From Okamejei kenojei (taxonomy: Eukaryota): DNA of 64,000 nt. Shown piece by piece: positions 5,406 to 54,780 of the stretch. Made by a program: the position numbers and the translations under genes. The notes under the pieces were generated by a model that did not search any database, was not told the DNA's origin, and saw nothing but the letters and a program-made list of their open reading frames with translations. Position 1 is the stretch's first letter, and each line of letters opens with the position of its first letter. The stretch lies in assembly GCA_035221665.1 (NCBI GenBank), contig CM069169.1, forward strand, positions 18,104,001 through 18,168,000. Reading direction: 5' to 3'.

Positions 5406-5781
5406 AAAGAAGGAACTGCAGATGCTGGAATTGAATTTTTTCAATTCTGTTAACCCTTACTGTCTCCTCCCCTTCCCACCTCTCCCTCAGCCCTCGGGCC
5501 CTGGCATTCCCTCTATCTCTATCTCCCTCCCCCACCCTAGTCGCACTAGCTTCTCATTTTCACACCACAAACAGCTTACAATGGCTTGTTCCCTTTATCA
5601 TCGATACTTTTTTGCATATCTTTCATTCATTGTTCTTTATCTCTCCACATCACCGTCTATATCTCTCGTTTCCCTGATCCCTGACCAGTCTGAAGAAGGG
5701 TCTCGACCCGAAACGTCGCCTATCTCCTTCGCTCCTTAGATGCTGCTGCACCCGCTGAGTTTCTCCAGCCTTTTGTGTACC
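5406..5781 (+). mobile_element. Penelope-derived terminal fragment with intact hammerhead motif, inverted 5' piece and 10-bp TSD
   Basis: TSD CAAGAGTGTT at 5396-5405 and 5782-5791; motif CTGAAGAAGGGTCTCGACCCGAAACGTC at 5690-5717; 5406-5430 is the reverse complement of the family terminus seen at about 50523-50546. Confidence 0.85.
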
Positions 5782-5789
5782 CAAGAGTG

Positions 5790-6330
5790 TTTTATTGTCA
5801 TATGTCCAGGACTGGACAATTAAATTCTTACTTGCTGCAGCATAACAGAATATGTGAATATGTAAACATTGTAAATAACAGAAGGAAAAAAAAGATAAAG
5901 TTCAACAAATAACAAATATAGTGCAAATAACAAATAACAATATAGTCTTTTGCAGTTCAGAGCTTATTCGATGTTGTTTAATAGCCTGATGGCTTTGGGG
6001 AAGCAGCTGTTCCTGAACGTGGACATTACAGTTTTCAGGCTCTTGTACCTGATGGCAATGATGAGATGAGTGTGTGGCCAGGATGGTGTGGGTCCTTGAT
6101 GATTTTGGCTGCCTTTTTGAGGCAGCGACTACGATAGATCCCTTCGACGGTGGGGAGGTCAAAAGCTGGTGATGGACTGGGCAGTGGTCACAACATTTTG
6201 TAGTCTTTTTTGCTCCTGGACGTTCAAGTTGCTGAATCAGGCCACGATGCAACCAGTCAGAATGTTCTCTATCGTGCACCTGTAGAAGTTTAGGAGAATT
6301 CTCTTTGACATGCTGAACCTCCATATATAA
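5790..6330 (-). mobile_element. Rex1/Babar LINE 3' end
   Basis: Reverse strand encodes YRCTIENILTGCIVAWF...KAAKIIKDPHHPGH...FPKAIRLLN, typical of the Rex-Babar post-RT region; tail ends GACAATAAA. Confidence 0.8.
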
Positions 6331-6889
6331 CATTAGCTATAACATTTATAGGCAAAAAAAAGATAATTTTTAAGAACCTTTTTTTATTACAGATCCAGAT
6401 ACATCCAGATTTGTTCACATTGCCACAGGATTTTTGAGACTTGATTAGCACAAAAACAATTTGTTTTCATTCCATGGCAGTGGATAACTTTCACGAGACT
6501 GCGTAGGACTGCAATGTTACATCTTGCACTGGCAGGGATAAGTCGGGAGTACACTTGAGAATGGAAAAGTTTTAAGCTTTATTTGTTCAGAAGGTTCTCT
6601 TTCAACATTTCAAATGTTCTCTTTTCTTTCTTTAAAAGTATTGATTTTTACTGGAACATTTGCACAATGATCACTAACTGGACAAAGGACATTTAGTGTC
6701 ACATACGCTAATTGGTGCAGTGAAATTTGAGTTACCATGCAGCACACAAATAAGATAATCACAACACTTTAGAATTTAACTTAAAACATAAAAAAAAACT
6801 TATCCTCTGAGATGGAGTTATAGAACCAAGGTAGGGAAGAAAAAAATCACTATAGATGCTGCCTGACTTACTCAGTATTTTAAGTACCT

Positions 6890-8045
6890 TTTAAGTGGTG
6901 GGGAAAATGAATGAATGAATGTGGAACATTTGGACATTCAGAATATTTTGATAAGATGACAATGATATTGTTAAACTACATTAGGGCAAAGGTAATTGGG
7001 CTAGAATACCAATATCGATTAAGGAATAATTAAATGGCCAAAACAGAGTGAAGAAATAATCGTGCAATTTTCCAGCTGAAACGTGACATATTGAATTACA
7101 TTGTGGCAAGCGGGATTAGTGCAGGATCCCCAACAGCCCAAAATCAGTGTCAATGATTTGGATGAAGTGTAACAAATCCAGGTTAGCTGATGATCTTAAG
7201 ATGGGTGCAGAGGATTCAGCGTGGTTTCGGAGCATATAAAAGGGCTAAGTGAATCGTGAGGACAAGGCAGATGGAAAACTTTAATGTAGAAAAGTAAGAG
7301 ATTGCCTCCTTTGGGAGAAAAAATAGCAAAGCAGTGTTTTCTAAATGATGAGAAACTGGAAGGTGTTCAAACGAAGGCAAAGGGTAACTTGGTCTCTATT
7401 ACAAGAGGATTTACAGCAGAAGACAGACTTGCTGCAATTATATAGAGATCTGGTGAGTCCACACTTGAAATATTATGTATCTAGTCGCCTTACCCAAGGA
7501 AGGATATAGACAAAGTGCAGTGAGGGTTCACACAAAATGCTGGAGTAACTCAGTGGGACAGACAGCATCTCTGGAGAGAAGGAATGGGTAAGGGTTCACC
7601 AGTAAGGGTTCATCAGATTGTTGGCAGAATTTCTGAATAAGGAGGGATTAAACAGACTGGGCCTGTAGACTCTAAGGTTGAGAACAAAATGAGACATCAT
7701 CCCACTGGAATGAAGAAGACTATTATGGAACTTGTGCAGGGATGATGTTTAACTTGGCTGCAGTGTCTAAAAAACAGACCTTGACAGCCAATAAAGTTAC
7801 CATCATAGAGTACCTCAATTAATATCCATGAATTTATCATTGACCAAAAACTAAAAATAAAAGTTTATTTTTATTCTACCTTGAATAACCAACCTTTTGT
7901 CTCAAAATAAAAGGTTGGTTATTCAAGGTAGAATTTATTTATGCAGAACCTTTGCAATTCTGTACCCATAAAGGCTGTGGAATTTCATTTACTGAATATA
8001 TTGAAGAAAGAGATCCATATACTTTTGGGGACTGAGAGATATGAG
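6890..8045 (+). mobile_element. Old degraded CR1 LINE with nested insertions
   Basis: Recognisable CTGGTGAGTCCACACTTGAAATATT (LVRPHLEY-like) and other CR1 3' motifs, many indels. Confidence 0.65.
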
Positions 8046-8485
8046 TTTAATTTAGTTTATTGTTGTCATGTGTACTGATGTACAGGGAAAGGATTTTTGT
8101 TGTGTGCTATCCAGTCCGCAAAAAGACTATACATGATTACAATCAAACTGTCCACGGTGTACATGGTAAAGGGAATAATATTTAGTGCAAGATAATGTCT
8201 AGTAAAATCCAATTACATATAGTCAAAAGGTCTGCAATGAGGTAGATGGTAGGTCAGGACAACTCTCTAGTTGGTAATAGGATGGTTCAGCTGGGACGAA
8301 ACAGTCCCTGAATCTGGAGGTGTGCGTTTCACAGATTCTGTACCTCTTGCAGGGTGAGACTCATCCTTTACTACGTTGGTGGCCTTGCAGAGGCAGCGTG
8401 AAGTGTAGATGGAGTCAATGGACAGGAGGTCGGTTTGCGTGATGGTCTGGGCAACGCCAATAATTTTTTGTAATTTCTTGTGGTG
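8045..8485 (-). mobile_element. Rex1/Babar-type LINE 3' tail (further copies at about 39995-40250, 42157-42335, 59395-59690)
   Basis: Shared GTTTATTGTCAC/ATGTGTAC...TACAGTGAAAAGCTTTTGTTGCGTGCTATCCAGTC block; family assignment by similarity to 5790-6330. Confidence 0.65.
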
Positions 8486-9119
8486 TACGTAGGTTAATGC
8501 AGGAAAGTGGTGTGGAGGAAGAGGCCAAAAGGCCTGTGCTGACTTCTATTACTTATGTTATTATAGCATCACCTGCATGTAGCTTCCCCTTTGTTATTCA
8601 ATATATTTGTCTTCATTGTTGTAGTGTCTAAAGCCTGGAGTTCCCAACCCAATGGCATTGTTGAAATCCAACTCTCCTCACCACCATCTTCTCAAAGCCA
8701 ATTAGGAATGTGACAACACAGCTTACATAATAAATCTATAGAAACGATGCCCACATTCTAAGTAGCACAGAACTATTCAGCATAAACTACCTCAAAGATC
8801 ACTTTGATACCTTACGACTCCTCATTCATGCCCAACAGATAACCCAAACCCTTCACTCCAGCACAGTGGATATCTGGAGCAACTTCAGTCGAGATTTGCC
8901 TGAAAGCTACAAAATGGAAGGAATGTGGACAACTTTGGATTTCATCAGATGAAGGGCTACATCTATCTGCCCAACACAGGAATGTACTCATCTCGACGGG
9001 TGGATTCGGTTTGTTTCCAGTTGGGGATAAATATTTTTCTCGTTGAAAGTTTTAAACTTCAATTAGAATTCTGGTGGCGATTTACCTGAAAAGTTGCGAG
9101 TAAGAAGGTTCAAAAATAA

Positions 9120-9960
9120 ACCAATAAATAAATGTGGAAATGACTCAGAGAGAGAGGCATTCCCTCTCCTCCTCGGCCGGCGCTGGTGAGGGCGGGCGGG
9201 CAGTGACTGAGGGAGTGCGGATGCGAGACGGCCGGACCCTCGCTCGCGCCCTCGCGTGCGCTTCCCGCCAAGCGCGTGGAACCGGCGGAGCGGCGAGCGG
9301 CCGTTGACGTCACAGAGGGGCACTATTGTGTAGCGGAAGCGGCGCGTCTGAGGGGCGGAAGTGACGGCGGAGGCGGACGGGCGCGCGCGTCGCCGGGAGA
9401 GAGAGCGCGGCCCAGTCCCTTTGTTGCGGTAGCGCTGCCGGGGGGAGTGCGGAGCGGAGCCTGAGGCAGGGACACCCCCACACACCGGCAGCTCACACCC
9501 GCCACCGGCGCCACCATGGACTCGGACGAGGGCTACATGTATGACGAGGACGAGTACAGCGAGGAGAGCGAGCCCGAGGACAACTTCGAGATCGGCGAGG
9601 TGGAGATGCAGGAGCCCGGCCTGGAGCCCGGGCAGGACGGCGACGGGGTTGGTGGTGGCGGCGGCGGCGGCCTGGGAGGCCTGGGCGGGCTGGGAGGCCT
9701 GGGCGCCGAGCAGGAAGAAGAGGATTACCGCTATGAGGTGCTGAGCGCCGAGCAGATTGTCCAGCACATGGTGGAGTGCATTCGGGAGGTCAACGAGGTC
9801 ATCGAGGTAAGCCTTATCCGGCCATCGTACCGGAGGAAAGCCCGAGTAGACAGGCCGCACAGGACCCGGGCCCTGGAGAGTGGAAGGACTGGGGCTCTGG
9901 GGTGCAAGTAGGGGAGTGTGATGCGGGTGGGAACGCACGGGTACATTGGACCATTGCGAG
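9120..9960 (+). promoter_or_regulatory. CpG-island promoter and 5' UTR of ARIH1
   Basis: Abrupt GC/CpG enrichment from about 9170; CCAAT 9121-9125; TGACTCA 9141-9147; GC boxes near 9190-9200 and 9352-9358; full CRE TGACGTCA 9305-9312; ETS plus half-CRE CGGAAGTGACG 9356-9366; no TATA box. Confidence 0.85.
9516..9806 (+). CDS. ARIH1: ARIH1 coding exon 1 (acidic and Gly-rich N-terminus, start of UBA-like region)
   Basis: Kozak GCCACCATGG; [13 protein letters not shown]...[31 protein letters not shown] matches the ARIH1 N-terminus; donor GAG|gtaagc; 291 nt, phase 0. Confidence 0.97.
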
Positions 9961-10879: not shown

Positions 10880-11870
10880 GGTCACGCGCATCAGCCACAC
10901 CTAAATCAAGGCATCTCTCTCAACATCGGAGATGTCCTCATTCTTTAAGAAATGGGGGGTTCCCCTTCCATTATAGATAAGGCTCTCACTGGGATCTCCT
11001 CGATATCCCGCAGCTCTGCTCTTGCTCCCCCCTCCCTGCCCATTCACAACAAGGACAGTTCCCCCTGTCCTCCCCTTCCACCCCATCAGCTGTCGCATTC
11101 AGCATTTAATCCTCCAACACTTTCTCCACCTCCAACGGGATCCCACTACTGGCCACATCTTCCCATCTCCACTCCTTTCTGCTTTCCACCGAAACTGTTC
11201 CCTCCGCACCTCCCTGGTCAACTCGTCCCTTCCCACCCAAACCACCCCCTCCCCAGGTACTTTCCCCTGCAACCGCAGGAGATGCAACACCTGTCCCTTT
11301 ACTTCCCCCCTCGACTCATCCAAGGAACCCAACATTCTTTTCAGGTGAGGCAGAGGTTCACTTGCACCTGCTCCAACCTCATCTACTGTATCCGCGGTTC
11401 CAGGTGTCAACTTATGTACATCGGCAAGACCAAGTGCGATTATTTCGCTGAACACCTCCGCTCAGTCCGCCATAACCTATGTGATCTCCTGGTTGCTCTG
11501 CACTTTAACTCCCCCTCCGATTCCCAATCTGACCTTTCTGTCCTGAGCCGCCTCCATTGTCAGTGCGAGGCCCAGTGCAAATTGGAGGAACAGCACCTCA
11601 TATTTTGCTTGGGTAGCTTACACCCCAGCCATATGAACATTGACTTCTCTAACTTCAAATAGCCCTTGCTTTCCCTCTCTCTCCATTCACTCTCCTTCCC
11701 AATTCCCCCACCAGTCTTAATGTCTCTGATTACATTCTATCTCTGTCCTGCCCACTCCACTGATATCAGTCTGAAGAAGGGTCTCGACCCAAAACGTCAC
11801 CCATTCCTTCTCTCCAGAGTTGCTGCTTGTCCTGCTGAGTTACTCCAGCATTTTGTGCCTACCTTCTTTC
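10880..11870 (+). mobile_element. Penelope-like element, 5'-truncated: linker Cys motif, GIY-YIG endonuclease and 3' terminal repeat
   Basis: PCNRRRCNTC then FTCTCSNLIYCIRGSRCQLMYIGKTK...FAEHLRSVR...VALHFN (GIY-YIG), frameshifted; followed by a hammerhead-like motif at 11771-11798 (GAAA mutated to AAAA). Confidence 0.9.
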
Positions 11871-13891
11871 GACATATTGTCATTTCCAAAACATCTAATA
11901 TCTGAAGTGTGATTTAGTGATATTTCAGTGGTACATCTTCTGTTGAAAAACAATGGTGGAATATTCAGATAGGGTTAACCCATTCCAGTGTGTATTAGAA
12001 TTGGCAAACCCCAGTTCATTGCAGATCATAGGTGGTTACCTGGATATTTTATAAACATTTCCATTCAAAGACCATTCGCTGAACAGACTTCAGATATGCC
12101 CTGGTGACCAATGTGTTAGACATAAAAATTCTCGGGTTTCTTGAGAATTTGTATGGCCAATTTCCAATACTCCAATCAAGTGCTTGGTAGGAAAATCTGC
12201 CAACATGGAATGGTTACTGACCTATAGGATTCATCATGGTGGTTATGACAGTGGTCCGTTAGCATATCTCTCTCTCTGGTGTTTGGCAAATGTGCCTCGA
12301 ACAACACCAGATGTTCCAGCTCTCCATGTTTATTGCATAAGTGCAAGAAAAAATGATTTCTCAAGTTAACAGTTATGGTGGGCTAATTATTTGAACTGTC
12401 CAATGAGTCTACAAAGCCATTCATTAGGTTTGTGGTTGAGCATGTCTCTTTCTTAAACCTTTCAATGCTTTTGATTAAAAAAATCCATCAATCCTGGGTT
12501 TAAAATTAGGTACCATTTGTGGAAGAGTTCCACATTTTTATCACCATGCATTTCATACCTTCACTGTTGAAAGGGTTGGTTCTGCGTTGTAATTTTTATC
12601 CTTTTCTATTCTCCCATCGGACAGGTGGTGCTTCTTTCTGTCTATCTCATTGCTTCCTTTTAATATCCTCAGTCAAATGACTGTCAGTTTTCAAAATTCC
12701 AAGAAGCAGTTGGTGATTCCATTGCATTGTGGTATAAGTGTTGAAATCCAAGTGACTATGTTCTACCTTCCTGCCTGCATACGTTCCTCGCGTGAATTGT
12801 GCAGAACTATCCTCAGTTTTCTGCGTACAGTCTAAGTACAAATCTGTTATGGCATTAAATCATCTGGATATTACGGTATACATTCCATCAGTATGTATTT
12901 CCTGTGTTTATGTGCCATTTGAATGATTATTGATAAAATAAATCTAATTCATTCCTTACCTCAGATCCATTCAAGTAGGTAGATTTCTGAACATTGTTTG
13001 TCCACTAACTTCCATGAATGTGGCTATTAATTGCAATATTACTTTGCTTATTGCCCTGATGCCTGCTAGTTCAACACAAGTTTGGTGTAGAGCTGGGATT
13101 TCCCCAGTCTCTGAATTTTCTTCCACAAGCTGAATTAGCCTCTGGGATAGGCTCCATAGATTTGCTCCCCAAGTTCCAATTCAATTCTTCCCCCTGTGAT
13201 ATATAGAGTTGTGTTGCACCAAAAAGGGCTCTTCAGCCCTTCATGTTCATGCTGACATTTCCCCCTATTTACACTAATTGGATTTACCCACATTAGATGT
13301 ACATCCTTCTTATGCCTTCTGTGTTCCACCAGTCTGAATACCGCTTCAAAATAGTGATTGTATCTGATTTCATCACTGCCAATTAGTTCTAGATATCAAC
13401 CAGTCTAAAAACCCCCATTAAAACTCTTTTGTCTCACCTTAAACCTAATTTAGAGAATTTGTCAATCTAGACAATTTCCTGGTGAATGTACTTACTTCAC
13501 GGTTGCAACATTTTTCCTAGTGTGTCAAACAGAATTGCACGCTGTACTCCCAAGTGCAGCCTAAATATGTAAAATTGCGACATAACATCCAAATTGCTCT
13601 CCAAATCTGGAGCGTATCGACATTCTCTACTGTACAATTCCATTTATGTTGATGCTGGTGGGAGCCCTACACACTTGCATCTGCTGCATTTCCCATGGAG
13701 GAGACAGCACAGAAGCAACATCAAAGCTGTGACTAGCCTAATACTCAGTCAATCTGTCGGTCAAATCAGACTTAGCTTTGAGTATTGATTATGATTCCAC
13801 ACTGATAACCTCAGCACCTGAATTGCATGGCTAATGGGAAAATGCATAGCTCTCATTTGGAGGGGTGAAATAAAGATGTCAATATATGGTG

Positions 13892-13989
13892 GGTACACAA
13901 AAGGCTGGAGAAACTCAGCGGGTGCAGCAGCATCTAAGGAGCGAAGGAGATAGGCAAAGTTTCGGGTCGAGACCCTTCTTCAGACCCAT
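13892..13989 (-). mobile_element. 98-bp Penelope-derived hammerhead unit with 16-bp TSD
   Basis: ATGTCAATATATGGTG at 13876-13891 and 13990-14005; body nearly identical to 5688-5781 and 42380-42476. Confidence 0.9.
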
Positions 13990-23015: not shown

Positions 23016-24715
23016 GTAAGCCTGGTCTCTGGTGAAATGTAATATGCTTAATATACAGTGAGGTAACAGATATCAGCTGTGGGGCACGAGGGTATGTGGC
23101 ATTTAATTAAGTTGTATGCTGAATGGAAATGTACACTTTTTAGTGGAAAAGACCAAGCAGATTACAAGAAAGAAATCAATGTTGAGTTGCAATGATCACC
23201 GATCCAATATATGAAGGCCTCGGAGGTTACTTTTGGCTCCATCAGCCTGCTTTTTAGTCAACAAGTTGGTCTCTGGGGAGATTGATGCCATTAGTTTACT
23301 CCTGTAGTTTAGAGTAGGTTGTTATGCTGTCATTGTGATGCTAATAAACACAGATTTTCACCATGATCAGAAGAAAGCTGGAACAATGTTGAGTTGTCAC
23401 CAGCATCTTGGACAGGAGGGATCCGTCCCAGCAGCATCCTGTCGGGAAAAAATTGTATTACTTGTATGATGGCAGAATTATTATCCCACAAAGGTAGTAC
23501 TAATAGTCACAAGCAGGCAAGCTTAGAGAGATCTTTGTTCTCACTTTTTACTGTCTGTCCAATAACCAATGTCACTGAATGACCCAGGATCCCAGTGATC
23601 TAACCTTGTGACTAACGTCTGATGGGATCTAGTCAAAAGCCTTCTGAAATTCTATATACACCACATCCTTTGGTTACCCCTTATGTGTTCTACGAGTCAT
23701 ATCCTCAAACACAACCTTCAATAGATGTGTTAAATATGATTTTGTGTTCATAAATCCACATATCATGTTCTAGCTGGGTTAAAAAATATATATTTTTTTA
23801 AGTTTCTGTTTAGTGTTGATTGTTCCCTGTGGTCCTCTGACCCTCCTTTCTCCTGTTCCAAATTGCAGTAGCATTAAGGATAAAATACGACAGACTGGCT
23901 GACCCGATGTGAACTTTCGCACTGACTTCCTAACCTCTAAGCAATTATTCAGTGGGTCCATTCAATCTTGTCGTGTCTATTTTTAATATTTTCTGGGAGT
24001 ATCAGAGACTCCAGTAAAGTCAAATACTGAAAGGCCATTTTTGATAATTCATTGAACACTACATATGTTGACTACATTGAACAGAGATTCACGGCATGTA
24101 AATTCACTAACCCATTGAAGTACAGAAAGCTTTGAATCAATTCTTTGGACTATTTGTCATTTAACCAACAGTGGTTTACAGTATAGCTTTATGTCTCTTT
24201 CACGTCGCTGTCTCGAGCTGTTCTGAATTAGATAAATCTTGACGATGACTCACTTTTTTTCAGTCATTGCAGTTAACCAAGTTATCAATTGAAACGGGAA
24301 ACCCAGGAAATGATTGTTAGGCGTAAAAAATATTTTCTAAGAATACTGTTTTCAAAAATAAGAAAGTCTGTTGTTTTCTTTGACGATTTCTGTGCTCCCA
24401 ATGCCTTGGTCAAGCCACGTACGCTCTCATTCACAGTCCTAGTGCATGCAGTCCTGGCATGTGTACTCCCACTGTGACTGAGTCATTTACAGGAGGGTAT
24501 ACTGCTAATTTAATTATTCTTTTTTATAAAGCTTTTTAGTTAGAAGCAACACATTTGAATGGGAAAAATCAGCTTCATATTTATAGGATGGTAATTTATT
24601 CTGGACAAATAATTTAATGAGAGTTAACAAACTCCTTGACATTCCTGATATCTTCCTGTTTGAATACTCCAATGATGTGGACAATTGTCTTCAAAGCCAG
24701 GGAGAGGCAATCGCT

Positions 24716-25290
24716 GTGAGTACCTGCCACACCTGGAGTATTGCTTACAGTTTTGGTCTCCTAATCTGAGGAAAGACATTCTGGCCATAGAGGGAGTACA
24801 GAGAAGGTTCACCAGACTGATTCCTGGGATGGCACGACTTCCATATGAAGAAAGACTGGATAGACTCGGCTTGTACTGGCTGGAATTTAGAAGATTGAAG
24901 GGGGATCTCATAGAGACTTACAAAATTCTTAAGGGGTTGGACAGGCTAGATGCAGGAAGATTGTTCCCGATGTTGGGGAAGTCCAGGACAAGGGGTCACA
25001 GTTTAAGGATAAGGGGGAAGTCTTTTAGGACCGAGATGAGAAAATTGTTTTTCACACAGAGAGTGGTGAATCTGTGGAATTCTCTGCCACAGAAGGTAGT
25101 TGAGGCTAGTTCGTTGCCCATATTTAAGAGGGAGTTGGATGTGGCCCTTGTGGCTGAAGGGATCAGGGGGTATAGAGAGAAGGCAGGTACAGGATACTGA
25201 GTTGGATGATCAGCCATGATCATATTGAATGGCGGTGCAGGCTCGAAGGGCCGAATGGCCTGCTCCTGCACCTAATTTCTATGTTTCTAT
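24716..25290 (+). mobile_element. Young CR1 LINE 3' fragment with open ORF2 C-terminus
   Basis: ORF 24685..25200 PHLEYCLQFWSPNLRKDI...TRGHSLRIRG...FFTQRVVNLWNSLP, uninterrupted; tail TTCTATGTTTCTAT. Confidence 0.93.
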
Positions 25291-27659
25291 AAATCTTGGG
25301 GGGTTTGAAGTTAGTGCTTCAGTCTTAAATACTTTCACATTTTTGTGTCATTTTATGCAAGTACCATCACTGAACATCGAGATGTCAATGCAGTTGTGCA
25401 TTTGATGGATATTCCTTTCTTGCATAAAGGAAATAGATTCTCGGCAACTTGTAGGCTTCATGCAAAACAAAGAAACCTGTATCCAAGCCTTCTGCTTATT
25501 TGGAAAGCTGTAATGCGGTGCACAGATTTTGCTCATTTACATTCATCAAATTTGTAATGAGAGCAGAGGGCTTTCTTTGTTTCCTTATGCAATCTGTACA
25601 TCTCAGGCCATTCATTTCTGTTGACACAAGTTTGTGGAGTGTAACTGAATGTTAGCAAACAAATAATACGGGTTGAACAGCAGAAATAATTAATTTGCAG
25701 AATCAAGAATGGTTTGTTTCTCACCGTATCATTTCATTAGTTAAATGCTGATATTGACTTGCTATCCTTCCACAGTTGCTGATTTGATTATGGCTCATGC
25801 AAGGTGGGGAACTTCCAATCGGGGATATCCTGTGGAGCACGTTACACAAAAGTTCAGTTGACTGCTATAATGTTATGAACTGCAAAAGAGAGTTTTCACT
25901 CAGACTGACAATGAAAACCTGGAGCACCTTCCCAGTTAGATTATTTATTTTGAATACATTAATATGAAATTCTGAGAGAGGAAAAAGCACCCCTGCACTT
26001 CAGGACGAGCTGCAAGCAGCAGGTTTTTATCCCCAGACATCTCCGAGATAGCAGCTCCATTTTACATTTTCTACCCTTCAGATATACATTTTCCATCTTA
26101 AAATTTCTGCATAGTTACAACAGAGGTTTTTGTTACTATATGACCATGTTGAGTATATATCTCTCCAAACACTGGGCCCCGAAATGTTCTTATAGCTTAC
26201 AGTTTCAGATAGAAGGGAAATGGTCATGGCTACATTTGAAGTTGGATAAGTGTTTGGAATGAAATGTATCCAATTTTATAGTGCGCAAACATAATTTGGA
26301 TTGAATGGAACCACATTGACTATAATTTGATAGCCTGTGGCTGTGACTATTTTGACCGACAGTTTTTATGAAAGTTCTCAGTGCTATACTATTTTAAATG
26401 TTCTTGTTTCCAAGCTGTAACTCTTTCACTTGCTGGAGCCTCCCAGACTTGTTCTTTCTCCCCCCCCCTCCCCCCTCCCCCCCACCCCCACTTGCTTTGT
26501 TTCCTTCTCCCAGCAGTTGACATCAATGTATTAAAACCTGGCTTTAATAACGTGAAAGGAATCTGGTTTCATGCAAAATGTGAGTGCAATTGTGGAAATC
26601 ACAGCATATCTATGACATGAGTCTATCTAGAAACTTAGTTGGGGCTAGAGCGAATTGCTGGAGCAGCATTTGGAAGAAGTTGTAAAATAAAGAACAGGTA
26701 TTGTCTTCATGTGAAGTAGGACGAGAGGAAGAGGTGATTGTGACTGGGCAAATACTGACACCCAACAGACAGAACAAAGAATCAGGAAAGGAAATAGTAT
26801 GTTATTTTAAGAAGGTTGAAAACAAAGGAGATTTTACTGGAATTATATAGTAACTTGATGTAAAACCCTGAAGTTCTGTGTGCAATCTTGGTTTCCTTAC
26901 CTATGAAACTATAAACTCACCAAAAGGAAAATCCAGCAAAGGTTTACCAGATATTCGAAGGAGGAAGGGGTTGCCAATTGAGTGTGAATAGAGGAGATCT
27001 GTGTGTTCTGGAGTGGAAGAGAAAGAAACTGGGTGAAATTCTTCCAGAGCTCCGCTGGCTGGATAAAAGGACGATATTCCCTGACTGAGCAGTGTAAGCT
27101 TGGGAGTCATGGTCTCAGAATCAGGGCTAGGCAGTTTAGGACTGAAATAAAGAGCAGGTTTTTCCACGGGAAAGATAGTAAATTTGGGAATTCTCTATCC
27201 TGGAGAACAATGTAGGCTCAAACGATTTGTGGATAGTCCTGAAAATGAAACTGTGGTAGAAGATGAATGATCGAGGAGGTTTGAAGAGACAGGTGTCCTA
27301 CTCCTAAGATAGACACAAAGTGCTGGAGTAACTCAGCGGGTCAGGCGGCATCTCTGGAGAAAAAGGATGGCTGACCATTTGATTTGGGGGCCTTCAGATC
27401 TACTCCTACTGTTCTTACTATTGATGTAACCATGCCTTCATTTTGTGGTGTGTTTGTGTGATATCTTCTGCAGTAATCCATGTACTTGTAGCCTGACATT
27501 GTCCCCGCCAATTTCCCATTGCAGATGTATTTGGGAATAATAAAATTGTATAATGGGTTACGGGTACCTATAATGAAAGTGTTACTGTGCGATGATTTAA
27601 AAGTGAACTTCAAACTACAATGTGATTACTTTAGGTAATGGCAAACTTTAATGTTACAG

Positions 27660-39468: not shown

Positions 39469-42379
39469 TTAGTGCGAGGTGTACATCAGGTTGAAGGGCC
39501 AGTTACATGAAGGAAGAGCCAAAAGAAGAGGTATGAGTGAATACCATTAGGTCCATTGTGCCATTTCACTTTATTAATGGTACGTCAACAAGATGAAAAT
39601 GCTGCTGATCTGCTGGAAATTTTCTCTATTCTTAAACACACATGACTTGAACATTAAGCAGCAGTTAATATTATTGATTTTTAAACTAGGTCTCCTTGTT
39701 GAGATTGCCATAATCCATTACTGTCATCATTAACATCCCACACGTTACTCCAGTTTAAACATTCCGTGTAGCTGATTTGTATATGGACTATTATTGTTTG
39801 GGAGATGAGTTTTTTGGGGGCCCTGAAATAATATTCAACCGTCAAGCACTCCTATCAATTTGAGTAGTAATAATATTTAAATGTTAGACAAGCAGAACAA
39901 AAACTTAATTGAAAATAAAATGTCATGCAACAATTGACCTGGGATACCCAGGGTCTAGGGAGTGCTGTTAAAACCAAATGAGAAAGCTAATGTTAGTCTT
40001 GTTTTATTTTTTGGTTTAGCTTATTGTCACGTATATCGAGGTACAGTGAAAAGCCTTTTTGTCGCGTGCTACCCAATCAGCAGAAATACTATACATGATT
40101 ACAGTCAAGTCATCCACTGTGCACAGATACAGGATGAAGGGAATAATGTTTAGTGCAAACTAAAGTCTGATTAAAGGTCTTCCAAGGATCTCCAATGAGG
40201 TTGATGGTAGGTCTGGACTGCTCTCTAGTTGGTGATAGGGTGGTTGATCTGAGTTCCTGTGCCAGGAGGAACTGTGTATAAACTTTGGCCTAGAATTTTG
40301 CTAGCTATTTGGGCCATGGGTTTTGATGGTTTTGAGTTCAATGTTCAATATTTGAACATTGTTCTATGAATTCTTCCAGTACCTTGACGCAACTCAAAAC
40401 TTAAGATGGAGTACTGTGCACATACCTTCGAAAGCAAGATGAGTATTGTTTTATTTTCCATCCTCAAAATGTATTACACTATTGAATAATAAAGGTTGAA
40501 ATTCAGAAACTGCCAAGAGAAAATGAGTTTAAAGTGGAAATATTCAGATCTATATTTCTCTGTACCTGATCCCTCAAGGATAAGTTGGACATGTTCCCTG
40601 CAGTCAAGGTTTCCATTAAATTTTGCTGCACCATCTGTGCTTTATTCCTCCAAGCCTATTAATTGTGCAAAGCAATTCATTTATTTGTTATATTGAGGTT
40701 CTGGGCATGTGTCTTTATCGTCTTTTTCATGTCAAACTTCGCAAAGTGAAAATAAAAATTCAGTCTGTACAATTGTCCATACAATTAGATACTGGCTGTA
40801 GTCTACCTTGACTCATGCCCTCTGACATTCTTGGCAAAAACAAAGTTAATTCATTAGACCCTTTTATCCACAATCATTTTAGTGAAGAGAATTCCAGTTT
40901 TCCATAACCCTTTTTGTGTAAAAGTGCTTCCAGATTTCACCCATGGGTTGCCCAGTTTAAATTCCTCTTTTTCTTTAGATGTCTTCTCAAATTAGAAAAG
41001 CTGACTATGTATATTAATATCAAATCCCATGCAACATTAATTGGATCATTTCTCAACCTTAGACTTTTAAAATGTCAGCAACTAGTGGATCTATCTTTTT
41101 CATCCAATGTATTTGTTATGTTCCTCTGCACCAGAAGAGCTTTCCTAATGTTTTGGAGCTGGAACTGAAAGGTGACAAAACTGCTTCAGGTGGAGTCTGA
41201 ATGTACCTATGTTGATTGTGTAATTTAACTATCATTGCATTGTGCAAAACATTTTCACACTTTGTTATTTGCTCTTTTAATTGATAATTAAAATTATCAA
41301 TAACAATGACCTATTCAGCAGTATTTTTGGAGAAGTATTTTGCAGATTTTCTTAACAATTGATAATTCTGGCCATGCAGGCTTGAGATTTTATGGATAAT
41401 ATGCACCTTTGACTTTTAGAAAATCCCCAAGACCACCTCACTATCTAGTGTTCAAAATTTATCTTGGTCATGAGCCTGGGGAAGTGAATAAACCTTCTGC
41501 TCAATGTGGCTGTTTTTTCTCAAATATACTTCTCTATCGTTTGACAATAGGTGCAGGAGTAGGCCATTCGGCCCTTCGAGCCAGCACCGCCATTTCTAAG
41601 TCCTCCCTGTTTTCCCAGTGTTAACAAATATTATATTAAGAATATGATTGAACATCTTTGAAAATCTTCTGGTTAGCAGTATGTTTTTTTAAAAATCATT
41701 AATACATTGCAGTGATTATGATCTATATTGGCCTATTTCAAAGACTCAAATACAAAAAAATCTTGATTGATCTTCTAGTGTGTGCCAGAGGGACCGAGTC
41801 ACAGTTGGAATTGTCATTGTTCAACTGAATCCCTTGTTTGTGCTCTAGGGTGAATGTAAAAAATGCCAACCGCTTAATGTGAAGAAGACAGGATGCCCCC
41901 TGTTTCCAGACAATATCTTTCCCTAAAGCAACTCATTAAAAAACAGTTTGTCAGATTATTGCTATCTGTGGGAACTTGCTGTGCATACCTATGGTATAAC
42001 TCTTCAGAATGTACTCGATTAGCTGCATTTTGGGCAATTTGCGGTCACGAAGGATGTTTTACAAGTTTGTTTGTCTTATTCAAATGGGTATGAATTACCT
42101 TTGATAATGAATCCCATTTTTGTAAGGAATTGTATTCGGATTGCAAAGTATTGCAAGTTCAGTTTAATTTATTGTCACGTGTACCGAGATACAGTGAAAA
42201 GCTTTTGTTGCGTGCTATCCAGTCAGCGGAAAGACAATACATGATTACAATCGATCCATTTACTGTGTATAGATGCATGATAAGGGAATAATGTTTATTG
42301 AAAGATAAAACCATCAAAATCTGATCAAGGATAGTCTGAATATTTGAAATATTAATTGGCCTTAGTGGCAGTACTTGGG

Positions 42380-42476
42380 GGTACACAAAAGGCTGGAGAA
42401 ACTCAGCGGGTGCAGCAGCATCTAAGGTGCGAAGGAGATAGGCGACGTTTCGGGTCGAGACCCTTCTTCAGACTGA
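42380..42476 (-). mobile_element. 97-bp Penelope-derived hammerhead unit with 11-bp TSD, core intact
   Basis: CAGTACTTGGG at 42369-42379 and 42477-42487; reverse strand CTGAAGAAGGGTCTCGACCCGAAACGTC at 42471-42444. Confidence 0.9.
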
Positions 42477-45400: not shown

Positions 45401-48400
45401 GTAAGTACTGTTTTAATAGATGAAAGTTGTTTCCATGAGTGAGCAGTGTAGACGAAGGCAAAAACAGTAGAGACTAGGATTACAGTAAAATGTGAATATA
45501 GATTTTCATAGAGAGAGATTTGAACTAGGTAAAGCACACATTTCCACAGTTCTGGGTCTGTTCTTTTGTCTGTGATGTATGTTGTGCCCGAGTGAGGTGC
45601 TGATGGTTGTAATCCTGTCTTGAGCTGATAGCACAAAGGTGTGAAAATCCCTGGAAATCTCATGGCCAAAAGTATATTTCATAGCAGATGGAAGGCTTGT
45701 AGTTACAGGAACCTATGTAATGTTTATGGAAAGCAGTGGGGATAGTTTGCAGTTCTTGTAATATGACTTATTATGGTTTTTGATTTGGAGAAAGTGGCGA
45801 GGATGGTAGGTCTTTTGTAGAAGAGTTGCTGTGGTCTGACTTGGTGTGCTTCTGTAATATTTTTGAATTTAATAATCTGGGTGGTTCAGATGAAGAAAAA
45901 CTGGTAGAAAGGGATGAAGTCTTTCCAGGAAACAGGGTGGGAGGAGGTTTAATTTAGAGGCAATAAGGAAATGGGGTATTTGTCTGACGAGTCCACGATG
46001 AACATTGATCATCATTCGCAACAATTCTACATTATGCCACTTTCTCATCCACTCCCTATACACTAGGAGCAATATACAGTGGCCAATTAACTTATAAAAC
46101 CTACATGTCTTTGTGATGTGGGAGGAAAACAGTGCACCCGGAGAGAACCCGTGTGGTCACAGGACAACATTCAAACTCCACAGCATCCGAGGTCATGATC
46201 GAAACAGAGTCTCTGGTGTTTGAGGCAGCTGCTCCACTAGCAGCACCGAGATGTTGCCTGTCCCACTGAATTCCTCCAGCATTTTACGTGTACCCTAAAA
46301 GAGTAGTTGAGATACATAGATTTATAGTTGATACCAGAGGATAGTTAATAAAGAGCTGCTTCGACTGGAATCTTCTAAACTGCTCTGCCACCACAGAGTT
46401 TTAGATGTGTTGAAAATGTAACAGTTGATTAGAGCACAGTATGGTTCCACAATTCAGTAATTAATAATGGGTATTGATTAAGTGATAAATATTGGCAAGT
46501 TCACAGTGGGTTATTCTCTGCTGTTGGATGCCTTGTATCCACCTGGGTCAAGCAGTTGGGAATCTCAGTGTAACTTCCGTGGTGATGCGGCAAATCTGGC
46601 CGCTCCTCCAGTGGCCAGAAGACATGGGAGCAGAATTAGACCATTTGGTACATCTTCAACATTCAATCATGGCTGATCTATCTTTCCCTCTCAACCCAAT
46701 TCATCTGCCTTCTTCCCGTAACCTTTGATGCCCGTACTAATCAATTAGCAACCAGGGCTGGCTGCCCCCAACAGTACAGCAGTCCTCACCATGGTCCCTC
46801 AGGAATGTCAGGATGGAGAATGTCACGGACGGCACTGAACCTGTGTGTGTTGCTCACTGCATTTTCACTCAGTGCAACTTTTACTATTCCTCTTGGTGGC
46901 ATATTTAGATATGCCACAGCTTGCACCTCCAGCTATGGTTGTGCAGTACCGCAGGGAGTTCTCCCTTCCAGGCTGGAGCATGGTGTAGGACATGGTGTAG
47001 ATATTTCTGCAGAGGAAGTTGGTTGCAGTGATACAACTAATAAAGTTTCCATTTTGAAGGAACAGTTTTTTCATCATGTGAACTGCTTGCCATAAAGAGG
47101 AATAGATGAATGGGGGGCGGGGGGCAGGTCACCATTTTGTGGACGCCCTGCTATGCTGCCACATTTGTCTGGCTGCAGTTCTTCATATAAAATACTTTGA
47201 AGTGTTTGAATGGTGTGGTAAGCTGATATATAAACTGCTGATCCGTGAAAGGAGAGCGCGGGCAATGGTGTGGCTACCCTTTTGTGGTGGAGAGTCAGGA
47301 GATTTCTTGTAGTTTTTCAAATATCAAATGCCTCTATTGCCCGATAATACCTTTGTCAGTGTGATCGACAATCAAATGGCTTCCACAGCTAGTTCAGGGT
47401 TTTGGGGGCGGTTCAACATTTGTCCAAGTACTGTATTGGTTGTTTATTTTGTGCTGATGTCCTGCTTGTCTGTGTCATAAATAGTTTACATGACTGTGCA
47501 TTCTAACTGGGTATAATAACCACAATTAAGGCGGCACAAGTAAACTATCTACTGCTGTTAGAAAAGATGTTTCATAAATGAAACTGGTTTTAAATTATGT
47601 ATGCGTGTGGTGAATAGGGATGCAAAGATTGGGATGAACAGAGCCATTTTTATGCAATTTCTGTCAAGCTCTGAGGAGTGAAATTGTGCTGACATTGTAG
47701 AGCTGTGCATAAACCATATTTTGTTGGCTATTCAATAGAGGCTTTGATCCGTACAATGCTGAGAGTGTTTGTGGGTTTGACCTCCTGTAAGTGCATGCCT
47801 TTGTTCCTCGTTCTGCCTGTCACTTCCCACACTATCTGTGATCACCTTAACATGCCTGCCCCCTGTTTCTTCAATAGCTCCCAGCAATTATTATTCTATC
47901 TGCTGACTGAATTGTCTTCAAATGTTTACAGTTTTCTTTGCTCCAGTTTCACAAACTGAGGGTGGGCAGGAATTTATTCCTGATGATTTATAAGTTCACT
48001 GTGCTTGAATTTGAGAATAGCTGCCAACCACTTCACTTCCTTTGCCCTGGGTACAGAATTAATGCTGATGATAAATGCGCTCATTCACACTTGCTGTGTT
48101 GCATGTTACAGCACTGTTTCAGTTCATGTGAAAGGCTGCAAAATTCAATTTCTTTCTGGTGACCTGTCAGCGCATTTTATAGATAGCGAGCCTAAGTACT
48201 TTCATTGCAGCAATAACAAGATATCCGTCTTCTCACTGATTATAAAAAGTGTAACATTTGGGAAGCTAGTGTTGCACTTGCTGAATATCAGTGATGCAAA
48301 GCAGGAATCTGGTGTTATATCTGTCCAGAAGACTCTAGTACCTCCTCACAGTACCTAATTGAATGGTGCGTATTACACCTTGATGACAGTTTAATTGTAT

Positions 48401-50294: not shown

Positions 50295-50551
50295 AAAAAT
50301 GCTGGAGAAACTCAGCGGGTGAGGCAGCATCTATGGAGCGAATAAAATGGGCGATGTTTCCGGTCTCGACCCTTCTTCAGAAAAAGGGTCTCGACCCGAA
50401 ACGTCGCCTTTTTCCTTCGAGTCTGAAGAAGGGTCTCGACCTGAAACGTCACCTATTTCCTTCGCACCACAGATGCTGCCTCACCCGCTGAGTTTCTCCA
50501 GCATTTTTGTTTATCTTCGATTTTCCAGCATCTGCAGTTCTTTCTTAAACA
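50295..50551. mobile_element. Head-to-head Penelope terminal repeats with three hammerhead-like motifs
   Basis: Arms 50295-50380 and 50423-50508 are reverse complements; motifs at 50353-50380 (-), 50378-50405 (+) and 50423-50450 (+). Confidence 0.85.
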
Positions 50552-51266
50552 GTGGGTTAGAGTTGCTGCCTTTGCTCACTGTTAGAATGTGCCTGCTTCA
50601 AAGTCATCCTGTCAATGGAGAGATCTTCTCTATAATTATGTCAGCTCTGCTGTACGTGCAGATGCAATGAAGAACTAAGGCTTCTGTGGCTGACCCAAAA
50701 TAATATGTATAGATCAGATATGAAAACAGGAAATACTGGAGTTAGTCAGCAGGTCAGGCATCACTTGTGGGGAGAGAAATGTGGATTTGGGTTGGTGACT
50801 TTTTAGTTAGGAAAACAAGCCTCATTTAGTAAGTTTAAAAAACATAGCTGTAGCTTTGTAGGCTGGGTGATCGAAAGAGAAAACAATGAGTGAAAATGTA
50901 CATGAAATGTGATTGGGAAATGTATTGGGCACTCCTTATTTTTCAGTAGAAAAAAAAATATTGGGGAGATTATCGGCTAGCTGGGAAGTTGCGGGCATGA
51001 ACTACGCACAATCACCATCAAAGCTCTGATGGGAAATCACTTTCTTGTATGAGGGTGCAGGGGAAAGAAGGATTGCTGTGTACTCTAAATAACGGGCACA
51101 ATGCGCGTTTCAGATTGCTTCAATTGGAAAGCACTGGAATTAGAAGGTAGATCTCTCTCAGTGACTCAATCATTTTCTAAGTTTACCTCTGTTTGTGAAA
51201 TGAGCACAATTCAGGTCACTGTTTTTAATCAGGATGTACTATTAACATTCTCTGCTGTTCTTCTAG

Positions 51267-51338: not shown

Positions 51339-51999
51339 GTAGAGCAGAGACATTTGGAGAGTAGTCTTCTTGTTTGCCCCCTTGACAATAGGATGAAAGT
51401 CTTCAGTTTATTTAAACAGTTCCAATTAAAGGTTTACACTGACGGTAGACAAAATGCTAGAGTAACTCAGCGGATTAGGCGGCATTTCTGGAGAAAGGGA
51501 ATGGGTGACGTTTTGGGTTGAGACCCTTCATCAGACTGATTATCTATGCCATGCTGTCAGTGTGCCTATGGTGCTGTGTCCTCCATACCAGTTGCTGGTT
51601 AAGATTCTGTCTCGTGTAGTATGCTGTCATACTCATCTCCCCACTCAGGCCTGTGGTGGAAACAGCGTAACTGCAGTCTGTTCCAAAGCTTGCCAAATAC
51701 TTGAGCGTTAGTGATGTAAAGTATGCACGTCATTCCCACCACTCCCAGTCTGTCTGCTAATGTAATATGGGCTACAAAAATCTCTTAAAGTAAAATATTA
51801 CCTGGAACATATCTAGTGTTGAATGGCTGTTCACTATCATTAACCCTAGGGTTGATTTCTAGATACGGTTTGCAAATTCATTGGGTCTTGTGATTGCTGG
51901 TATAGGCAACACAATATTGGATCTTGAGTGTGAGCTCCTGTTGTTTCTCTGTAGTTGAATTGTTACTGTTTGCTAACGGTGCCTCTAACGTTCCGACAG

Positions 52000-52130
52000 G
52001 AATGCCCAAAATGTCACGTGACCATTGAAAAGGACGGAGGATGTAATCACATGGTTTGTCGCAACCAGAATTGTAAAGCAGAATTCTGTTGGGTCTGCCT
52101 TGGTCCCTGGGAGCCGCATGGATCTGCCTG
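52000..52130 (+). CDS. ARIH1: ARIH1 coding exon 10 (RING2/Rcat; catalytic Cys codon TGT at 52042-52044 = C329, equivalent to human C357)
   Basis: ccgacag|[44 protein letters not shown]|gtcagt; 131 nt. Confidence 0.98.
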
Positions 52131-52530
52131 GTCAGTATTTTGCTTTGGTTTTGCATGGAACATTTCAGGATTAACCAACATTTTAATTGTTTGAACATTG
52201 GATTGGATACTGCTGTATATCTGCCCCAAGTTTAAATCAAACAGGATGCTTGATTAAAAGCTTCAGAAATGCTGTTGGTTTTTGACATCTGAGCAAAGTT
52301 TCAGGGCAAACTTGCTTTCTTTGACTATAAGTGCACAATCTACAGTTGGATAATTAACCTAGTAGACTGTTCTTAAAGTAGATAAGGGAAAACGGTGTCC
52401 GGTAAGCCCTGATCAATCCAAACAAGGTGATTTTAACTGTCTTAGAAAGTAAAGAAATATCATTTTGTTTGTTCTGTGTATTCTGCGTAAAGTCTGAAAT
52501 GAAATTAAGTCAGGCCCTCTCTACTTTTAG

Positions 52531-52588
52531 GTATAATTGCAATCGTTATAATGAAGATGATGCAAAGGCGGCAAGGGATGCCCAGGAG
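52531..52588 (+). CDS. ARIH1: ARIH1 coding exon 11
   Basis: cttttag|YNCNRYNEDDAKAARDAQE|gtaaaa; 58 nt. Confidence 0.96.
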
Positions 52589-53103
52589 GTAAAAGGAGCA
52601 CGGATGTGGGCAAGTCCACAAACCCCTAAACTCTGCAGTTGTGGGGAAATATTTCTTATTGAAGCATTAAATCTCCTGCACCTGCCCAGGGTAGTCACGT
52701 CCCTCTTGCAGTGTGGCAGCCACAATTGTACATACTGATCCATCTGTGCAAGTTTGTTCAACCAGTCTTTTATAAAGTTGTATTATAGCCTCCCTGCTCT
52801 TCCGTGCCCCAGCTGATGAAGGCAAGCATCCCTTACATCGGTGTTACAACCTTTAAAGACCCTTGGAATAGTATACTCACGACCTTCGTGTCTCCATACT
52901 CTCGGGTTCCGCCCTTCATTGTGTTTGCCCTTGCCATACATCCCCTCACATTTATCATGATTAAATTCTATCAGCCATTGGTTTGTCCATCGTAACAAAA
53001 CTAATCAATGTCATCCTGTATTCTACGGCTATCCTCCTCTCGAGCAACAACACCAACGTTTGTGTCACCTGCGAACTTCTACATTCATATAAAAATATGA
53101 ATA

Positions 53104-53879
53104 CGGTAAACCCCTGCTATAACAGACCACACGGCAGGAGACGATGTCTTGCTGATTGTCCACTATAACCGAATAAGGGGGTTAATTTGTACAGTACTAT
53201 TGGAAAAACACCCAATAAACATACACCACGCAGTAAAGGACACAAATACCCTGGGAAAGCATTGCGGTACAGTTGCTGCCTCACAGCACCAGAGACCCGA
53301 GTTCCATCCTGACCTCGGGTGCTCCCTGTGGCAACGTGGGTTTCTTCCTGGGTGCTCCAGTGCACTGGCTCCATCCTACACTGAGTTGTCCCTAGTGTGT
53401 GGGGTGGAGCTGATGTGCCCGGAATGGTGGGGGGGGGGGTCGGGCTGGGTCACTGGCGCAATGCGGTGGCGACTGCCGGTGGTTTGGGCAGCTCGCTGAG
53501 GCCAGTTAGGCGACAGGCCTGCGTGTCGTTGCTGTGGGGGTGGGGTGGGGTGCCCAGGGGAAACCCACGCTGTCACAATGTCTCTGCCGTTGCAATGCGG
53601 GGGGAATGATAGAACCATTGCAGTAGTTTTATCCTACACACTGCACACTGTCCCTAGTGTGTAGGATAGAACTAGTGTGCAGGTGATTGCTGGTCGCCGC
53701 TGACTCCATGTTTCTATGCTGTATCTCTAAACTAAGCTAAACAAAAATGGTTCAAAAACACCATTTGCTCCATCTACCTAGTGGTTATTCCGTGAAACAA
53801 TGAACTTGGACTACAACAGATTCAGTCCGCTAAAACCAAAATCCGTTATAAAGTGGTCAGTTAAAATGAGGGTTTCCTG
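53104..53879. mobile_element. pogo/Tigger-type MITE with nested V-SINE
   Basis: TA|CGGTAAACCCCTGCTATAACAGACCAC ... GTGGTCAGTTAAAATGAGGGTTTCCTG|TG, imperfect TIRs; V-SINE pieces from about 53255. Confidence 0.55.
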
Positions 53880-54577
53880 TGCTTAGAAATACCTTTGATG
53901 TACTTCACAGCAGCAAGGGTACCGGCATTGACTGCTGTGGTGCATCACTGGTTACAGGTTCCCAGTCACAAAAACACCCCTTAGTCATCACCCTCTACCT
54001 CCTATTAACAACCCAATTATCATTCCAATTTGATGTACAAGTAAATACCTGCCACAGATACCATTCGCCCTGCATTAGAGAACGCTATTGGGGAAAGAAC
54101 GTTGGACAAGCCATTGTGTGTGCCCACAGCTCTGCGAGTATGCCAAGACGTGTCTACAGCCACCTACCTGATGGATAAACATGCAACATTTCATCCAAAT
54201 GCAACTTTTGGCGTCACCACTTGGTTTGGATTATAATTCTTGAGTTGTGGGTATTGCTGGTAATTGTTGCTCATCAGCGTCTATCAAGGCCATTGCAGTT
54301 GTTTACGCACATGAACCTGGAAGGATGTGTTTCGAGGAATGCACAAACTTAAATATTGATGTAACACTGAGTGTATATTTGTGTAAATAGACGTCCGTCA
54401 TTAAATACTAAATTCATTTCAAGATTATTTTGTCGGGAGCTTAAAATCTATTGACATCACAAGTTTCAAATGTCATCCTTGTAACAGCAGAGCTTTGAAA
54501 TAGTTTTTGTAGTAATCATGATGTAAGGACATGTTGCAAGAGGTAAAGGGTTTACTGCTCTTCATTCACAATATACA

Positions 54578-54780
54578 ATAGAAAACAGACAATGCTGAAA
54601 GTACTCAGCAGGTCAGGCTGCATTGATGGAAAGAGAAGCGGCCAATGTTTCAGGTTTAAGACCCTTCATCAGAACTGAAACGTTAACTGTTTCTCTTCCC
54701 ATAGATGTGACCTGACCGCTGAGTATTTACAGCATTTTCTGTTTTTATTTCAGGTTTCCCAGCATCTCCAGCGTTTTGAT
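54578..54780. repeat. Old fold-back repeat built from Penelope-type terminal sequence (similar one at about 34020-34195)
   Basis: AATGCTGAAAGTACTCAGCAGGTCA ... TGACCGCTGAGTATTTACAGCATT inverted arms around GACCCTTCATCAG (CTGATGAAGGGTC on the - strand). Confidence 0.7.

Follow-up and report, generated by a model that had tools for sequence, protein, structure and literature searches.

The 64-kb stretch of Okamejei kenojei DNA analyzed here (the window) contains, in and around the gene ARIH1, a recurrent motif resembling a minimal hammerhead ribozyme (HHR). This raises the question of whether the gene has acquired self-cleaving RNA in its introns, or whether the motifs are passengers carried there by a mobile element.

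Hammerhead Motifs in the Window

The initial annotation listed about ten minimal hammerhead motifs, and all ten were found at their coordinates. Relative to the reference copy at 5690–5717, the copy at 42444 shows no mismatch, those at 11771 and 50423 show one each, 13956 and 50378 two, 51507 three and 50353 four, while the 1787 copy has seven ungapped mismatches together with indels, and the 54645 copy carries an insertion. As the best match in 30 dinucleotide-Markov random windows had 8–12 mismatches, the ten motifs stand far above chance. They correspond to eight insertions (Table 1), since 50353, 50378 and 50423 form one compound fold-back, and at least seven further Penelope-like family pieces in the window lack a complete motif. 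The motif is perfect at 5690 (plus strand) and 42444 (minus strand). Regarding their location "in and around" ARIH1, eight motifs lie inside the gene, and those at 1787 and 5690 lie upstream of its ATG at 9516. A scan of the window against Rfam gave no hammerhead match at E values up to 10; the Rfam hammerhead models are likely too long for such a minimal form.

Table 1. ARIH1 and the motif-bearing insertions of the window (positions from the first base of the window; C3 is the reference point for insertion ends).
Feature	Position	Strand	Composition	Evidence and context
Older Penelope-like 3' remnant	1691–2114	−	Last ~70 GIY-YIG codons (frameshifted), 3' UTR, damaged hammerhead ~1787–1816, long tail	tblastn aa 623–693 and local alignment to +124; upstream of ARIH1
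Young-subfamily insertion	5406–5781	+	Short inverted tail piece, last ORF codons, 3' UTR, perfect motif 5690–5717, short 3' end	10-bp target duplication 5396–5405/5782–5791; ARIH1 ATG 3.8 kb downstream
ARIH1, start codon to Ariadne-domain exon	9516–55333	+	Minimum span, gene may extend further; exons partly mapped	ORF list, Pfam, human match
Penelope-like remnant	10923–11866	+	CX4CxxC linker, GIY-YIG domain (frameshifted), 3' UTR, hammerhead 11771–11798 with G12A	
95-bp stub	13891–13985	−	5' start 2 bases before C3; G16.2U and C17U	16-bp target duplication; antisense to ARIH1
97-bp stub	42379–42475	−	5' start 4 bases before C3; perfect motif 42444–42471	11-bp target duplication; antisense to ARIH1
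Compound head-to-head insertion	50295–50549	.	Minus arm with damaged motif 50353–50380; partial plus copy 50378–50405 (U4A and G8A); plus copy 50423–50450 (C11.1U) with long tail	MFE −153.1 kcal/mol, z −16.75
Older stub	51428–51540	−	5' start ~6 bases before C3; G12A	Antisense to ARIH1
Old head-to-head pair	54585–54757	.	Minus copy with motif ~54645–54672 (insertion in stem II region, G16.2A); plus arm whose start is GAAA	

An Abundant Penelope-like Family

Genome-wide, one 30-mer form of the motif occurs in 40,026 exact copies in 2.76 Gb, against none for the reversed control. In one element (L031), an ORF, a UTR, the motif and the next ORF are arranged in tandem; this ORF matched the Pfam models RVT_1 (E = 6.4e-6) and, C-terminally, GIY-YIG (E = 0.0021), both under the curated cut-offs, and the family copies of this single RT and endonuclease ORF contain frameshifts. 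A CX4CxxC linker was found both in L031 and in the window (10977–11348), and a CCHH motif, with CxxC and two His, could be read by eye in the endonuclease translation. Moreover, the motif was present downstream of 55 of 64 endonuclease ends (allowing up to nine mismatches), mostly 82–274 bases past the stop, and the likely ATG of L031 lies ~160 bases 3' of C3. Judging from L031 and the endonuclease ends, the motif sits in the pseudo-LTR (pLTR), in sense with the ORF. A GIY-YIG ORF had been described directly 5' of the motifs at 11771 and 1787; endonuclease sequence is indeed there, but as a 5'-truncated, frameshifted remnant with no intact ORF, its stop lying 114 and ~110 bases from the motif, respectively.

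Overall, the earlier assignment to a Penelope-like element (PLE) carrying a minimal type I hammerhead is supported, including the palindrome ACGU as helix III and the short helix I of 2 bp. It is highly probable that the motifs represent such a hammerhead in the pLTR of an abundant RT and GIY-YIG Penelope-like family, and that the window copies, mostly 95–130 bp long and 5'-truncated, are inert passengers without a role in ARIH1. The find itself is ordinary, as hammerheads in Penelope-like pLTRs are already a known feature (PMC4209133) and an effect of the copies on ARIH1 is unlikely; its value lies in the data set, a young family with more than 40,000 near-identical copies that preserves the start and stop points of reverse transcription.

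Structure, Conservation and Decay of the Motif

The copies at 5690 and 42444 have a perfect core (CUGANGA and GAAA, with U16.1 and H17), as does the majority in each of six groups of at least four copies. Loop 3 is absent, and the palindromic 15.2-16.2 segment reads ACGU, with C-G in 203 of 350 copies and CA/TG, reflecting CpG decay, in 99. The extra base between 9 and 10.1 is A in 309 of the 350, and the 10.1-11.1 pair is G-C in 213 and G-T in 47. Helix II comprises 4 bp with one-sided change only (U-A in 276/350, U-G in 38/350), and no clear two-sided stem II covariation was seen among the 350 copies; helix I comprises 2 bp (U-A in 142/350 or U-G in 113/350; G-C in 216/350), the third position being A-C. 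Core conservation and stem II covariation had been proposed as a refutation test, and its outcome was divided: besides the one-sided stem II, copy decay is CpG-driven and neutral-like, with core columns kept no better than downstream columns in the 350 copies, but subfamily majorities retain the motif. A group labelled 'F_AACT' was rejected as a separate family, being a mis-binned mix. In poly(A) RNA reads of a related organism, a weak test, no pile-up of read ends was observed.

It is unlikely that the motif resembles a hammerhead by chance or as a vestige, free of ribozyme selection, in a segment kept as, e.g., a promoter or protein-binding site. Such a reading would fit a helix I of only 2 bp, the one-sided changes of stem II and the lack of both an Rfam match and a read-end pile-up, but the core, the extra base, G10.1-C11.1 and the palindromic 15.2-16.2, located where expected, all agree with the published min-HHR consensus. 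Moreover, the motif changes at subfamily level are structure-neutral (loop 2, U-A/U-G at 10.4-11.4 and 2.1-1.1, C17U), whereas variation is seen in the UTR and in roughly a dozen columns downstream.

Comparison with Known Systems

Cervera and De la Pena (2014, PMC4209133) described min-HHRs as general in metazoan Penelope-like pLTRs, with no activity as monomers and weak activity as dimers. The motif studied here shares with those described in that text the type I core without loop 3, the palindromic 15.2-16.2, the extra base before helix II, G10.1-C11.1, the pLTR position and an occurrence mostly as single dispersed copies. By the same source, helix II has 7–8 bp in Schistosoma, against 4 here, and helix I 4–5 bp in Schistosoma and 2 in D. 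virilis, against 2 here, while the 40,026 exact 30-mers compare with ~4,000 motifs in coelacanth and ~9,000 in Xenopus. The article text of PMC4209133 names no cartilaginous fish as a host, and no PLE hammerhead of cartilaginous fish was among the topics of the papers listed by our literature searches, although the supplements of that work and of the preprint by Li et al. may contain one.

The role of PLE ribozymes is described as an open question (PMC8557442). Frangieh et al. (2024, PMC11167929) reported that in the anole element PAc the HHR requires protein and is dispensable for insertion, the main template being unprocessed RNA. Like this Anolis Poseidon element as presented there, the family carries its HHR where pLTR and ORF meet, has two 3' ends ~33 bases apart and shows no RNA reads that end at the cut. 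It differs in its CX4CxxC linker, which is of the Neptune/Nematis type, and in its likely ATG ~160 bases past C3, which in PAc lies inside the HHR; in addition, 5' ends pile up at the HHR edge here, a feature that is not part of the description of PAc in the sections of that article drawn upon. Partial tandems, 5' truncation, an adjacent inverted copy, a 30–40-bp tail, target duplications, a Zn-finger linker and the CCHH motif are shared with EN+ PLEs of the Neptune/Nematis type as characterized by Craig et al. (2021, PMC8557442) and Arkhipova et al. (2013, PMC3846280), a likeness drawn from these features; unlike in those accounts, very short stubs predominate here. Finally, non-LTR retrozymes, with one chondrichthyan among their reported hosts, are likewise HHR-bearing non-coding pLTR derivatives, but are described as at least two consecutive tandem units with a complete HHR each (Li et al. 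2026, bioRxiv 10.64898/2026.07.22.740005), whereas here the insertions lie dispersed, singly or head-to-head. Just one two-core tandem occurs in the window (50378 and 50423), and its first core is broken.

Insertion Ends and Proposed Mechanism

Among 110 young copies, the 3' ends fall mainly into two classes, 69 at +88 to +95 and 23 at +125 to +132 from C3. Target duplications of 9–25 bp were found in 13 solo copies, and an inverted arm was flagged in 29 of the 110. At the other side, 62 of the 110 start at −10 to +6 (about three being sister-subfamily copies with another UTR), and none clearly at +28, the GUC cut. In a random 600 kb, 87 of 199 5' ends lie at −6 to +5, versus 3 of 199 at +25 to +31. 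Since genome-wide ends per base near the motif's 5' edge outnumber those at the cut about tenfold, the integrated copies stem mostly from uncut RNA, which is consistent with the one biochemical study available (PMC11167929). The genome-wide estimates show a slight excess at +28 (~145, versus ~81 at +30 and ~18 at +27), and there is room for a small fraction of copies from cleaved template. The corresponding purine-preceded counts are 290, 243 and 177, with 15/30, 10/30 and ~3/30 true ends and microhomology not separated; 4 of the 15 true ends at +28 are two palindromic junctions, each counted twice.

That the short copies form a separate non-autonomous element, retrozyme- or SINE-like and amplified from its own short RNA, is improbable, even though the most frequent form is a 95–130-bp unit with target duplications and exact 30-mers number 16,487 upstream versus 41,131 downstream. 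Their 5' ends spread over ~13 bases, each junction being individual, in sequence they equal the pLTR found in copies with an ORF, the two 3' end classes are shared by long and short copies, and the window holds no multi-unit tandem array with intact motifs.

With the short copies read as products of the ORF-bearing family, we propose that the element RT would initiate within its RNA at either of two sites, ~93 and ~126 bases past C3 (the known 'tail' signature), and would read through the uncut hammerhead, mostly stopping a few bases from the motif's 5' edge, while nicks on both target strands would yield target duplications and head-to-head pairs. The ribozyme would likely be maintained in active master elements, cutting only with help from a second copy and/or the element protein, and not as lone genomic copies. 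The 5'-end cluster just before the motif may mark the RNA start. More specifically, and as a tentative reading, the RNA could start at the initiator-like YCAGTCT 3–4 bases before C3, the hammerhead being the transcript's 5' end and the 95-/130-bp stubs complete cDNAs of uncut RNA. If so, the tens of thousands of stubs would each extend from one of the two internal sites of RT initiation up to the capped end of the RNA, head-to-head pairs would be joined at capped-end positions, solo pLTRs and inverted junctions would be explained, and cleavage would have only a minor role, at most in a small class of copies starting at the cut. The copy record provides a precise, testable position for the RNA 5' end.

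For copies with a −3 start, the preceding base is G in 992 of 2,234 non-C cases (44% versus ~26% expected), and this G was untemplated in 9/11 versus 13/29 (Fisher p = 0.07). Because the G:A ratio is 1.42 at start +2 versus 1.26 at start −3, this cap-G test does not single out one start, and it was rejected as a specific mark of the RNA start. An intron reading, based on the pyrimidine tract and CAG 5' of the motif as in D. virilis, was rejected on three lines of evidence: no common GT donor was found at the ORF end across 46 copies among those listed, short copies adjoin target duplications and not an upstream exon, and no GT..AG ends occur among the joints listed from RNA reads.

Motif Copies Inside ARIH1

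Pfam analysis of the ARIH1 ORFs gave a weak UBA_ARI1 match and an Ariadne match (4.5e-12), and 86 of 88 residues are identical to human ARIH1 405–492. A search with ARIH1 exon 1 listed no RNA data containing it. Five of the eight internal motif copies are antisense to the gene, and none of the three sense copies has the full motif: 11771 carries G12A, 50378 U4A and G8A, and 50423 C11.1U. The claim that the family supplies self-cleaving RNA to ARIH1 introns thus fails, as five of eight copies are antisense and all three sense copies are altered. The change at 11771, GAAA to AAAA, is the very one suggested earlier as a dead control. Regarding the copies initially called intact, 5690 and 42444 are perfect, whereas 50423 has a G10.1-U11.1 pair and is predicted to be buried in a fold-back of −153 kcal/mol, paired to the inverted arm of the same insertion (helix II probability 0.0). 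Three plus-strand copies were folded locally, giving a probability of 0.0 for helix I and at most 0.012 for helix II, with folding energies that leave out tertiary contacts and proteins. The 42444 and 5690 copies could be transcribed in their own sense.

Functional self-cleavage in ARIH1 introns, e.g., by a double hammerhead of the plus-strand cores 50378 and 50423, is very improbable: these lie 45 bases apart in sense orientation and can be drawn as a hybrid structure that includes a 4-bp ACGU helix III, but its energy is +1.1 kcal/mol, compared with −10.3 for the local minimum, the insertion as a whole is predicted to form a fold-back, and every sense copy, including 11771, is altered. A domesticated intronic hammerhead of the amniote type is a single, conserved, canonical, sense-strand ribozyme in an intron; here, in contrast, the motif is a high-copy repeat with no intact sense copy in ARIH1. 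The window copies are likely inert passengers, those inside ARIH1 being likely idle, either mutated or in the wrong orientation.

Identity and host element of the motif

The ten hammerhead motifs listed in the initial annotation are all present in the window, and their naming as Penelope-like minimal hammerheads was correct: the core, the extra base before helix II, G10.1-C11.1 and the palindromic ACGU all agree with the published minimal hammerhead, with a 4-bp helix II and a 2-bp helix I. The motifs at 5690 and 42444 (named by window start) are identical, while the others are 1-4 substitutions apart or carry indels (1787, 54645); in 30 trials with random windows of equal dinucleotide composition, the closest match had at least 8 mismatches. 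An Rfam search of the window gave no hammerhead match. Across the 2.76-Gb genome, one 30-base form of the motif occurs in 40,026 exact copies (reversed control, 0), and a profile of the downstream part only found 207 matches in evenly sampled stretches totalling 600 kb. Seven more pieces of the family, absent from the initial list, lie in the window (see table).

The endonuclease-like ORF end at window 11255-11659 had 149,527 first-look candidates genome-wide, of which 150 were scored and ten loci with long open frames taken. In L031, a Penelope-like tandem outside the window, the order is ORF, 237-base pyrimidine-rich UTR, motif, tail and the next ORF's start. The motif lies downstream (at most 9 mismatches) of 55/64 endonuclease ends, a set that includes loci picked for having it. 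This repeat matches the canonical endonuclease-bearing Penelope-like element with a hammerhead in its pseudo-LTR, as laid out in PMC4209133 and PMC8557442; the motif is real, and its kind already known. Pieces of the Penelope ORF reported directly before 11771 and 1787 are indeed there, both truncated and frameshifted. A short extra piece of ORF end (1295-1367) is 90% alike to 11651-11722. The likely start codon of the ORF in L031, ~160 bases after C3 (the first core base), is overlapped by a donor-like AAG/GTATG at 6136-6145; among the splice joints listed for the poly(A) reads of a related organism, none uses this donor-like site.

Features of the motif family in the window
Feature	Position	Strand	Substitutions
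Sense copy in ARIH1	11771	+	G12A
Sense copy in ARIH1	50378	+	U4A, G8A
Sense copy in ARIH1	50423	+	C11.1U
Penelope-like family piece without complete motif	7530-7597		
Penelope-like family piece without complete motif	27298-27380		
Penelope-like family piece without complete motif	30498-30546		
Penelope-like family piece without complete motif	46248-46283		
Penelope-like family piece without complete motif	50720-50781		
Penelope-like family piece without complete motif	54677-54757		
Penelope-like family piece without complete motif	59071-59135		

Conservation

Among 350 copies analyzed of 609 matches (anchored on the downstream part, at least 20/32 columns matching), CpG decay dominates the changes, those at G12 and 15.2/16.2 among them, and conservation is no higher in core columns than in downstream ones; inserted copies are therefore under no visible selection. 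Across subfamilies the motif is constant, with structure-neutral changes within it, while differences occur in the UTR and in roughly a dozen columns downstream; this suggests constraint in master elements, but two-sided covariation was not found. The conservation test proposed in the initial annotation was thus split, negative among copies and with support from constancy across subfamilies.

In L031, the first core half (5984-5988, GAAGAAGG) has complements in two places, a pyrimidine run shortly after the core (6015-6019) and another at the long 3' end (6093-6103). The minimum-energy fold pairs GAAGAAGG with the latter, and such pairing might act as a built-in ribozyme off-state.

Ends of the copies

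Positions are counted from C3, with the predicted cut after GUC at +28. Of the 5' ends of 110 young copies, selected by the 30 bases following the cut site, 62 fall at -10..+6, with ~3 of these from members of a sister subfamily, and 28 lie farther upstream. Another 18 are at +7..+24, several of them artefacts of indels, and the 2 ends at +25..+28 both proved to be artefacts when inspected. A random set agrees, with 87/199 at -6..+5 vs 3/199 at +25..+31, although some boundaries may reflect missing references, as only 16 reference UTRs were used. Counted over the whole genome, 1,779 purine-preceded starts lie at -3 and 1,414 at +2. Almost all of those subsampled are true ends (~57/60; 20/20, G-preceded only), and both counts far exceed the estimates of about 18 at +27, 145 at +28 and 81 at +30. 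RT thus usually copies through the uncut ribozyme and halts at the hammerhead's 5' edge.

Copies starting at the cut represent below about 1 percent of 41,131 tail matches; a small excess there is possible, not separated from microhomology. In two head-to-head insertions (L278/L279 and L284/L285, G000:C1), the arms share a 2-base palindrome, and the predicted cut is a possible start for both of them, through either a cleaved template or plain microhomology.

If the hammerhead blocked RT by its structure, RT would be expected to stop at the 3' side of the motif and not at the 5' side. The simplest reading, which we hold tentatively, is that element RNA starts near the 5' edge, at an initiator-like sequence. 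The cap-G test, a comparison of the G preceding copy starts, is suggestive at -3 and to an equal degree at +2, which leaves room for dispersed starts as well as for simple untemplated addition of purines. In D. virilis, Penelope has an internal promoter that contains Inr and DPE (PMC2377424). Among the poly(A) reads from the related organism, 1,380 and 558 switch to unrelated sequence at the hammerhead 5' edge, and no site where many molecules begin or end was seen in 9,309 reads (~6 in 100 of the run).

At the 3' side, 69 of the 110 young copies end at +88..+95 and 23 at +125..+132, the other 18 being mostly shortened by indels in ungapped extension. These two classes correspond to the tail signature tied to two internal RT start sites (PMC11167929).

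Relation to ARIH1 and other repeats

ARIH1 runs along the plus strand from 9516 to 55333 or beyond, with motifs 1787 and 5690 upstream. The self-cleaving RNA initially proposed for its introns is not borne out: 5/8 copies within the gene are antisense, and the sense copies are mutated. Moreover, 50353, 50378 and 50423 form a single head-to-head insertion, whose sense RNA has a predicted fold-back of -153.1 kcal/mol (z -16.75), and the double-hammerhead fold drawable at 50378/50423 has +1.1 kcal/mol. The copies are therefore unlikely to take part in ARIH1 processing and, on present evidence, are no regulator of the gene.

Another dispersed repeat has fragments at 2794-3496, 4173-4356, 24676-25287, 41532-41594 and 58012-58172, whose translation resembles the end of a CR1-type LINE. 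An inverted repeat pair at 60586-61224 (~150 bases, 85% alike) is possibly a small DNA transposon, and an AT-rich hairpin at 7871-7939 (Rfam mir-186, 31.6 bits vs gathering 70) is probably a chance inverted repeat.
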